Assembly (NCBI RefSeq): GCF_003334785.1
Contig: NZ_QOWV01000010.1
Source: Escherichia coli
GTDB lineage: Bacteria; Pseudomonadota; Gammaproteobacteria; Enterobacterales; Enterobacteriaceae
Reading direction: 5' to 3' (one strand)
Length of the DNA: 64,000 nt
Part shown: positions 9,765-9,801 of the stretch, piece by piece
Numbering within the stretch: the stretch's first letter is position 1
Layout: each line of letters begins with the position of its first letter
Notes under the pieces: generated by a model
The model's input: the letters and a program-made list of their open reading frames with translations, nothing else
Databases searched by the model: none
Told to the model about the DNA's origin: nothing
Position numbers and translations under genes: made by a program

Positions 9765-9801
9765 ATGTTCATCCTTGTAAGTCAAAAGAGAACAATAGCG
9801 G

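Follow-up and report, generated by a model that had tools for sequence, protein, structure and literature searches.

All competence-gene homologues of Escherichia coli are induced by Sxy (PMC3330819). The comF gene is listed in the published CRP/Sxy ("CRP-S") competence regulon, where it is credited with a promoter of its own; the site search for that regulon extended from −300 bp to the start codon and permitted overlap with upstream ORFs. The asymmetric CRP-S motif of E. coli has been defined as TGCGA-N6-TTCCA, and activation at CRP-S promoters is Class I-like (PMC6728893). The window studied here, that is, the whole 64-kb stretch of E. coli DNA that was analyzed, also holds the competence operon hofMNOPQ (31895–35181), with mrcA at 29223–31775 on the minus strand. 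By primer mapping, the published EMSA fragment that carries the CRP-S sites of hofM (yrfD) lies at 31619–31744, wholly inside mrcA and 151–276 bp before the hofM ATG.

Two further descriptions concern gntX (the E. coli comF orthologue, also named yhgH) and bioH themselves. According to the main text of Cao et al. (2017; PMC5438404), bioH is transcribed at a low level and is not under BirA control, and bioH–comFC synteny, for which Akatsuka et al. (2003) are cited, serves to recognize free-standing bioH genes. The neighborhood described there is the same gene pair in the same orientation as gntX–bioH. Neither "promoter" nor "intergenic" appears as a word in the main text of that paper; the spacer length, the promoter predictions, and the synonymous conservation given below belong to the present analysis. 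In addition, PMC9104697, in a passage that cites Nonaka (2006), reports an RpoH promoter inside yhgH/gntX. Already known before this analysis were the gene pair, its synteny, and that a CRP-S promoter of comF exists.

The gntX–bioH pair resembles mrcA–hofM in that both are divergent, both include one competence-gene homologue, and the sites of this homologue, which are predicted for gntX, lie in the 5′ coding region of the neighbor. The two pairs differ in their spacers (119 bp in mrcA–hofM, 37 bp in gntX–bioH) and in the predicted bioH promoter, which, unlike mrcA–hofM, appears to use the start codon of the neighboring gntX within its −10 element. The predicted bioH promoter and the sigma-32 promoter of nfuA are both embedded and both consist of two conserved islands around a variable spacer, but the nfuA promoter serves a co-oriented downstream gene with another sigma factor, whereas bioH is a divergent gene with a predicted sigma-70 promoter. 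With the CRP-S regulon, the locus shares a comF orthologue and a conserved TGCGA-N6-TTCCT sequence that agrees with the asymmetric motif in 9 of 10 positions, a match that is not significant alone. This candidate site stands about 145 nt before the gntX start, which is compatible with Class I geometry and a leader of 70–85 nt.

Materials and methods

The comparison set consisted of 74 loci encoding BioH relatives. DNA-level constraint within the coding flanks was sought in two ways: by synonymous-codon identity over 46 distinct loci, and by codon tables of the 52 Enterobacterales loci in which both starts were aligned. A consensus promoter scan gave no match around the spacer, and for this reason a sigma-70 position weight matrix (PWM) was used instead. 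The only consensus match near the locus was TAGTCA-16-TATGAT at 9018–9045 on the minus strand; its −10 overlaps the nfuA start codon, which makes a chance match probable. What was observed directly comprises the gap, both start codons, the patterns of conservation, and the matches to motifs. The coordinates of the features are collected in Table 1.

Table 1. Genes, translation signals, and predicted or candidate transcription signals at the gntX–bioH locus (window coordinates)
Feature	Position	Strand	Description
gntX (yhgH)	9081–9764	minus	ComF-family "DNA utilization protein"; 227 aa, ATG start; RefSeq annotation
bioH	9802–10572	plus	256 aa; RefSeq annotation
Divergent gntX/bioH spacer	9765–9801		37 bp; from sequence, ORF list, and RefSeq
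gntX Shine–Dalgarno AAGGA	9772–9776	minus	7 nt before the ATG; read from the sequence
bioH leader AAAAGAGAACAATAGC	9784–9799	plus	Conserved; SD-like GAGA at 9788–9791
Predicted bioH −35 TAGCCA	9735–9740	plus	Complement of gntX codons 9–10 (TGG CTA)
Predicted bioH extended −10 TGtTAGCAT	9756–9764	plus	Reverse complement of gntX codons 1–3 (ATG CTA ACA)
Candidate proximal gntX promoter	9792–9822	minus	−35 CTGCCA 9822–9817, 19-nt spacer, −10 TATTGT 9797–9792
Near-invariant block CATCTTGTGCTGCTGCACGGATGGGGACTG (plus-strand letters)	9844–9873		bioH codons 15–24; holds the −10-like CAAGAT (minus, 9850–9845)
CRP-S-like 22-mer AAATGCGAGCTAAGTTCCTCGT	9920–9899	minus	bioH codons 33–40; center 9909.5, 145.5 nt upstream of the gntX ATG
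Sigma-32-type element CTTGAA	9224–9219	minus	gntX L181 CTT and E182 GAA, synonymous identity 1.0
Sigma-32-type element CGCCATAT	9203–9196	minus	Variable spacer of 15–17 nt to CTTGAA

Results

The gntX–bioH pair and its spacer

The initial annotation had described a divergent intergenic region of 37 bp between gntX and bioH, and the sequence, the ORF list, and RefSeq all bear this out: the gntX ATG is read from 9764 to 9762 (minus strand), with that of bioH at 9802–9804. From 9000 to 10650 the DNA matches E. coli K-12 MG1655 at 100% identity; the RefSeq record of that strain has the same CDS ends for both genes and the same gap, and the stretch is present in 5,425 of 5,426 complete E. coli genomes. 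NCBIfam model NF008616 covers residues 1–227 of the 227 of GntX, and NF007674 covers residues 1–256 of the 256 of BioH. GntX scores above the cut-offs of both NF008616 and TIGR00201 (comF), and by these two models gntX is the comF orthologue of the competence regulon.

In the 100 kb of K-12 DNA surrounding the locus, the 11 divergent gaps measure 37, 119, 130, 179, 220, 227, 270, 301, 319, 378, and 611 bp, so that in this small sample the gntX–bioH gap is the shortest, by a threefold margin. Its length is 34–41 bp in 46 distinct loci of Enterobacteriaceae and Erwiniaceae, and 46–112 bp in Winslowiella, Brenneria, Dickeya, Yersinia, Rouxiella, and one Citrobacter. Wherever the flank was recovered, in Enterobacterales, Vibrionaceae, and Pseudoalteromonas, a ComF/GntX homologue stood divergently upstream of bioH. 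The 37-bp spacer is a genuine and conserved feature of the gntX(comF)–bioH divergent pair.

Three records in the comparison carried doubtful labels. Contig NZ_JAHZMP010000038.1 (673 bp), from an assembly named "Terrisporobacter mayombei" (our locus L058), is 99–100% E. coli gntX–bioH, and contig CACSKA010000004.1 (429 kb; L027), labeled "Chryseobacterium sp. 18061", holds an Enterobacteriaceae (Klebsiella-like) gntX–bioH locus; both look like contamination or mislabeling in public assemblies. The locus of "Citrobacter freundii strain M-21" (NZ_JAALBX010000003.1; L037) encodes a BioH 74% and a GntX 63% identical to those of E. coli, against 84–88% and 82–86% for the other Citrobacter loci, and its spacer differs too; the species label may be wrong.

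Translation starts and contents of the spacer

The codon homologous to the ATG at 9764 is likewise ATG in every one of the 52 Enterobacterales loci whose two starts were aligned. Between it and an in-frame stop upstream, many genera (Citrobacter, Kluyvera, Klebsiella-like genomes, Pantoea, Yersinia, and more) have no other start codon, which makes an N-terminal extension impossible in those genera. The in-frame candidates upstream in E. coli are TTG 9785, ATG 9812, and TTG 9827. A long gntX ORF had been thought to begin with an ATG at 9827 and to overlap bioH entirely; the codon at that position is TTG, and the overlap would be 26 bp only (9802–9827). The short gntX start is right, and the doubt that had been cast on a "trimmed" start proved unfounded.

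In essence, the spacer is a back-to-back pair of ribosome-binding regions. On the gntX side, the plus-strand motif CATCCTT/CCTCC adjoining the ATG is conserved across loci; on the bioH side, AAAAGAGAAC(A/G)(A/G)TA(A/G)C adjoining the ATG is kept in nearly all of them. The middle of the spacer is its least conserved part and varies among loci. Neither gene looks leaderless, with AAGGA/GGAGG 7 nt before the gntX ATG and GAGAAC...TAAC before that of bioH. The gntX SD region looks like a CsrA site, a likeness that we took to result from the strength of the SD. A perfect 7-bp inverted repeat (TTCATCC/GGATGAA, 9768–9774/9800–9806) joins the complement of the gntX SD to the bioH start codon; as a device for sequestering the gntX SD it was rejected, the repeat not being conserved outside Escherichia. 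A direct repeat of 14–15 nt, ATGTTCATC(C)TTGT (9765–9779/9839–9852), links the spacer to bioH codons 13–17 and is Escherichia-specific.

From −35 to +1 a promoter takes about 36 bp, and a sigma-70 promoter with an SD leader needs about 50 bp or more per gene. The two genes lie on opposite strands pointing apart, and their spacer is too short for two promoters and leaders. Because of this space requirement neither promoter fits the 37 bp, so that each would sit within the first codons of the opposite gene. The initial annotation had left the choice between two promoters packed into the 37 bp and transcription of one gene from inside its neighbor. Geometry and spacer content speak against the packed arrangement, and we infer that transcription starts inside the neighbor, probably for both genes.

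Two readings would dispense with embedded promoters of this kind. That both promoters stand back to back within the 37 bp, or that the mRNAs are leaderless, has next to no probability in our estimate, given that the spacer contains no promoter-like hexamer pairs, that SD-containing leaders are conserved for both genes, and that the conservation is lowest exactly in the middle. It is scarcely more credible that gntX is mis-annotated and translated from TTG 9827, ATG 9812, or TTG 9785, in which case the genes would overlap and the spacer would not exist. E. coli does have an in-frame ORF that reaches TTG 9827, but this extension is not conserved and an in-frame stop lies directly upstream of the short start in many genera; moreover, the ATG at 9764 is universal in the 52 loci and preceded at 7 nt by a conserved AAGGA/GGAGG SD, and the curated GntX model aligns over its full length.

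Synonymous conservation and the nfuA promoter

The strongest peak of synonymous conservation in gntX covers codons 186–197 (z = 3.3). Beneath this peak lies, upstream of nfuA, a promoter sequence of sigma-32 type (minus strand, 9196–9224, gntX codons 181–190), which on our own reading would be the RpoH promoter published for yhgH. Both of its elements fall on islands where synonymous conservation is perfect, with a varying spacer between them. The sequence served as a positive control: since the published nfuA promoter coincides with the gntX peak, synonymous conservation is able to reveal embedded promoters.

A predicted bioH promoter inside gntX

The best sigma-70 PWM candidate upstream of bioH was TAGCCA-18-TGtTAGCAT, with a score of 9.2, for which 0.18 matches are expected per 300 nt. 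It has the features of an extended −10 promoter (TGn, A at −11, T at −7), and TG and TAGCAT are identical in 48 of the 52 loci. The PWM places the transcription start site (TSS) at about 9771, which would give a leader of about 31 nt. At the orthologous position the score is at least 7 in 51 of 52 loci, and the observed median of the orthologous scores has a background frequency of 1.4e-4 per position.

The codon tables of gntX show the same elements. Leu2 is the rare CTA in 48 of 52 loci and Leu10 the rare CTA in 51, the number in which the −35 hexamer is identical. Codon 3 is NCA in 49 of 52 through Thr, Pro, and Ser replacements, which means that the TG of the extended −10 is kept. Codons 4–7 vary freely in the 52 loci. 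This pattern, two conserved islands with freely varying codons between them, fits the footprint of the predicted promoter. The conservation of codons 2–3 could come partly from translation-initiation constraints, and for the bioH leader, conservation is hard to tell apart from that expected of an RBS.

The predicted promoter would be consistent with a weakly expressed, BirA-independent bioH. A search of the window for the long inverted repeat of a BirA-repressed bio operator, made with a bioO-like pattern, gave no match at up to three mismatches. The supplements of Adams 2021, Cappable-seq 2016, Kim 2012, SMRT-Cappable-seq 2018, ROSE 2023, and Shigella M90T 2020, searched by gene name and by MG1655 coordinate prefixes, contained no TSS rows for bioH or gntX.

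Candidate signals upstream of gntX

The minus-strand sigma-70 PWM scan found no gntX candidate above chance. The candidate proximal promoter (Table 1) has a PWM score of 5.1, the chance level in E. coli, and a predicted TSS at about 9785. Most of the 52 loci retain its pattern (C/T)TGCCA ... TAnnnT, 10 of them as TTGCCA, a retention that is confounded with the RBS of bioH and its codons 6–7 (Trp-Trp-Gln codons).

With a spacer of only 37 bp, any published comF site must be within bioH. A CRP-S site measures 22 bp, has C at position 6 (TGCGA), and its second half-site is weak. The CRP-S-like 22-mer contains TGCGAGCTAAGTTCCT at 9917–9902 (TGCGA-N6-TTCCT), which agrees with TGCGA-N6-TTCCA in 9 of 10 positions; the 64-kb window has six such matches against 5.55 expected. 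Codon 38 of bioH is NCG in 50 of 52 loci across Ser, Ala, Pro, and Thr, and codon 39 is CAN in all 52, a pattern by which TGCG survives amino-acid replacements. That TGCG is kept through such changes supports a function of this candidate site. In Erwiniaceae, Brenneria, and Rouxiella the second half-site is TCGC, nearer to the palindromic CRP-S form.

Among −10-like hexamers, CAAGAT alone stands at a spacing compatible with Class I geometry, and it would put the CRP site at about −71.5. Neither its A at −11 nor its T at −7 varies, and 49 of 52 loci have all six bases. Genomic SELEX lists a sigma-S peak inside bioH with gntX downstream ("bioH > gntX"), at low resolution (PMC5493296). The peak is compatible with a promoter inside bioH. 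By our own conversion of coordinates it seems to lie about 250 bp further inside bioH. An upstream ORF of 25 codons in the putative gntX leader (ATG 9846 to TGA 9769) was discarded: 13 of the 52 loci lack its ATG, and the spacers differ in length by amounts that are not multiples of three.

On its other side, bioH converges with rpnA (10601–11479, minus strand), with 28 bp between the stop codons (10573–10600). The scan found no terminator-like hairpin in this gap, which makes antisense read-through across either gene possible.

A near-invariant block in bioH codons 15–24

The block that contains CAAGAT is the strongest peak of synonymous conservation in bioH (z = 4.0). Along 26–30 nt it hardly changes among more than 50 Enterobacterales genomes, and five third-codon positions in a row are part of this stretch. 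L16 is CTT and V17 is GTG in 52 of 52 loci, and H20 is CAC in 51, while Leu36, taken as a control, uses six codons. Conservation of the block does not depend on the distance to gntX, since it persists in genera with gaps of 53–112 bp; it does not extend to Vibrionaceae. The block is single-copy in E. coli, with no convincing second copy in the window. It has neither a variable spacer nor a good −35, which sets it apart from a plain promoter footprint and makes the assignment of CAAGAT tentative.

The block can fold as an 11-bp hairpin (9842–9868), and this fold is no better than that of shuffled sequences (z = −0.33). Among 38 sequences there was one compensatory cell, a result that 128 of 500 shuffles reached as well; in 7–19 of 28 distinct sequences, several of the pairs are broken. 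The search against Rfam gave no family apart from one match at chance level, and the block thus shows neither the covariation nor the family membership of a structured RNA. Compared by eye with known motifs, it did not fit sigma-32, sigma-54, sigma-E, LexA, marbox, NtrC, SlmA, IHF, or EcoKI.

Lacking a good −35 and a variable spacer, the block may bind some other factor, instead of or besides holding the gntX core promoter. It could be the site of a regulator, or a contact for Sxy or RNA polymerase that keeps the competence gene silent or inducible. We would put forward only as a doubtful proposal that it is an undescribed operator or core-promoter element for gntX, possibly for bioH too. If this were true, the oxyanion-hole peptide of BioH, HLVLLHGWG, would be encoded by double-duty DNA.

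Discussion

We favor, with moderate confidence, a reading in which each promoter lies within the first codons of the opposite gene, with an extended −10 promoter for bioH, CRP-S control for gntX, and overlapping transcripts; all TSSs and factor assignments in it are deduced from sequence. For bioH, the most likely arrangement would be a weak, constitutive, extended −10 sigma-70 promoter whose −10 includes the gntX ATG and whose TSS is near 9771. For gntX, the CRP-S-like site in bioH codons 33–40 is the most likely activator site for CRP/Sxy, and the core promoter would be in or near bioH codons 15–24. If CAAGAT is the −10, the TSS would be near 9838, with a leader of 74 nt antisense to the 5′ end of bioH. 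An additional weak proximal promoter of gntX, starting at about 9785, may exist. The 5′ ends of the two transcripts would overlap by about 15 nt from the proximal gntX start, or by about 70 nt from the distal one, and two polymerases would compete for the same DNA.

Three other explanations account for part of these observations. The conservation in bioH codons 15–24 and gntX codons 1–10 might reflect constraint on the mRNA (a hairpin, codon choice, or initiation) and not promoters. The 5′ codons of genes are often constrained and an 11-bp hairpin is possible at 9842–9868, but the fold is no better than shuffled, covariation is absent, and pairs are broken; furthermore, the rare CTA and CTT are fixed where common codons would do, and in gntX the pattern forms two islands, a promoter-like geometry also seen in the nfuA sigma-32 control. 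We consider this explanation unlikely. Slightly better placed, although still improbable, is transcription of gntX solely from the weak proximal promoter at the bioH RBS, with the CRP-S-like site and the block serving something else. The wide retention of (C/T)TGCCA ... TAnnnT and its fixed geometry relative to the bioH ATG argue for such a promoter; against it stand the 19-nt spacer and the chance-level score, the bioH RBS and the Trp-Trp-Gln codons account equally well for the conservation, and the published Sxy/CRP dependence of competence homologues would be left unexplained. Least probable of the three is that gntX is expressed mainly by read-through from rpnA, antisense across all of bioH. 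The short convergent gap in which no terminator-like hairpin was found would allow this, but positive evidence for it is lacking, and it explains neither the localized conservation upstream of gntX nor the published statement that comF has its own promoter. Quite unlikely as it is, we set it behind the other two.

With embedded promoters as the preferred reading, and with promoter positions that are predicted, we regard the locus as an ordinary case of overlapping divergent promoters embedded in coding sequence. Its significance beyond good annotation is small. Divergent spacers that are very short are not necessarily errors, as regulatory DNA, here in the form of predicted promoters, can have moved into the coding sequences, and synonymous-site conservation could serve to find further embedded promoters. 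For the gene pair itself, deleting or recoding the first ~10 codons of gntX would be likely to disturb the expression of bioH, and recoding the first ~40 codons of bioH would be likely to disturb that of gntX. These effects are relevant to Keio-type knockouts, genome recoding, and the engineering of the biotin pathway.
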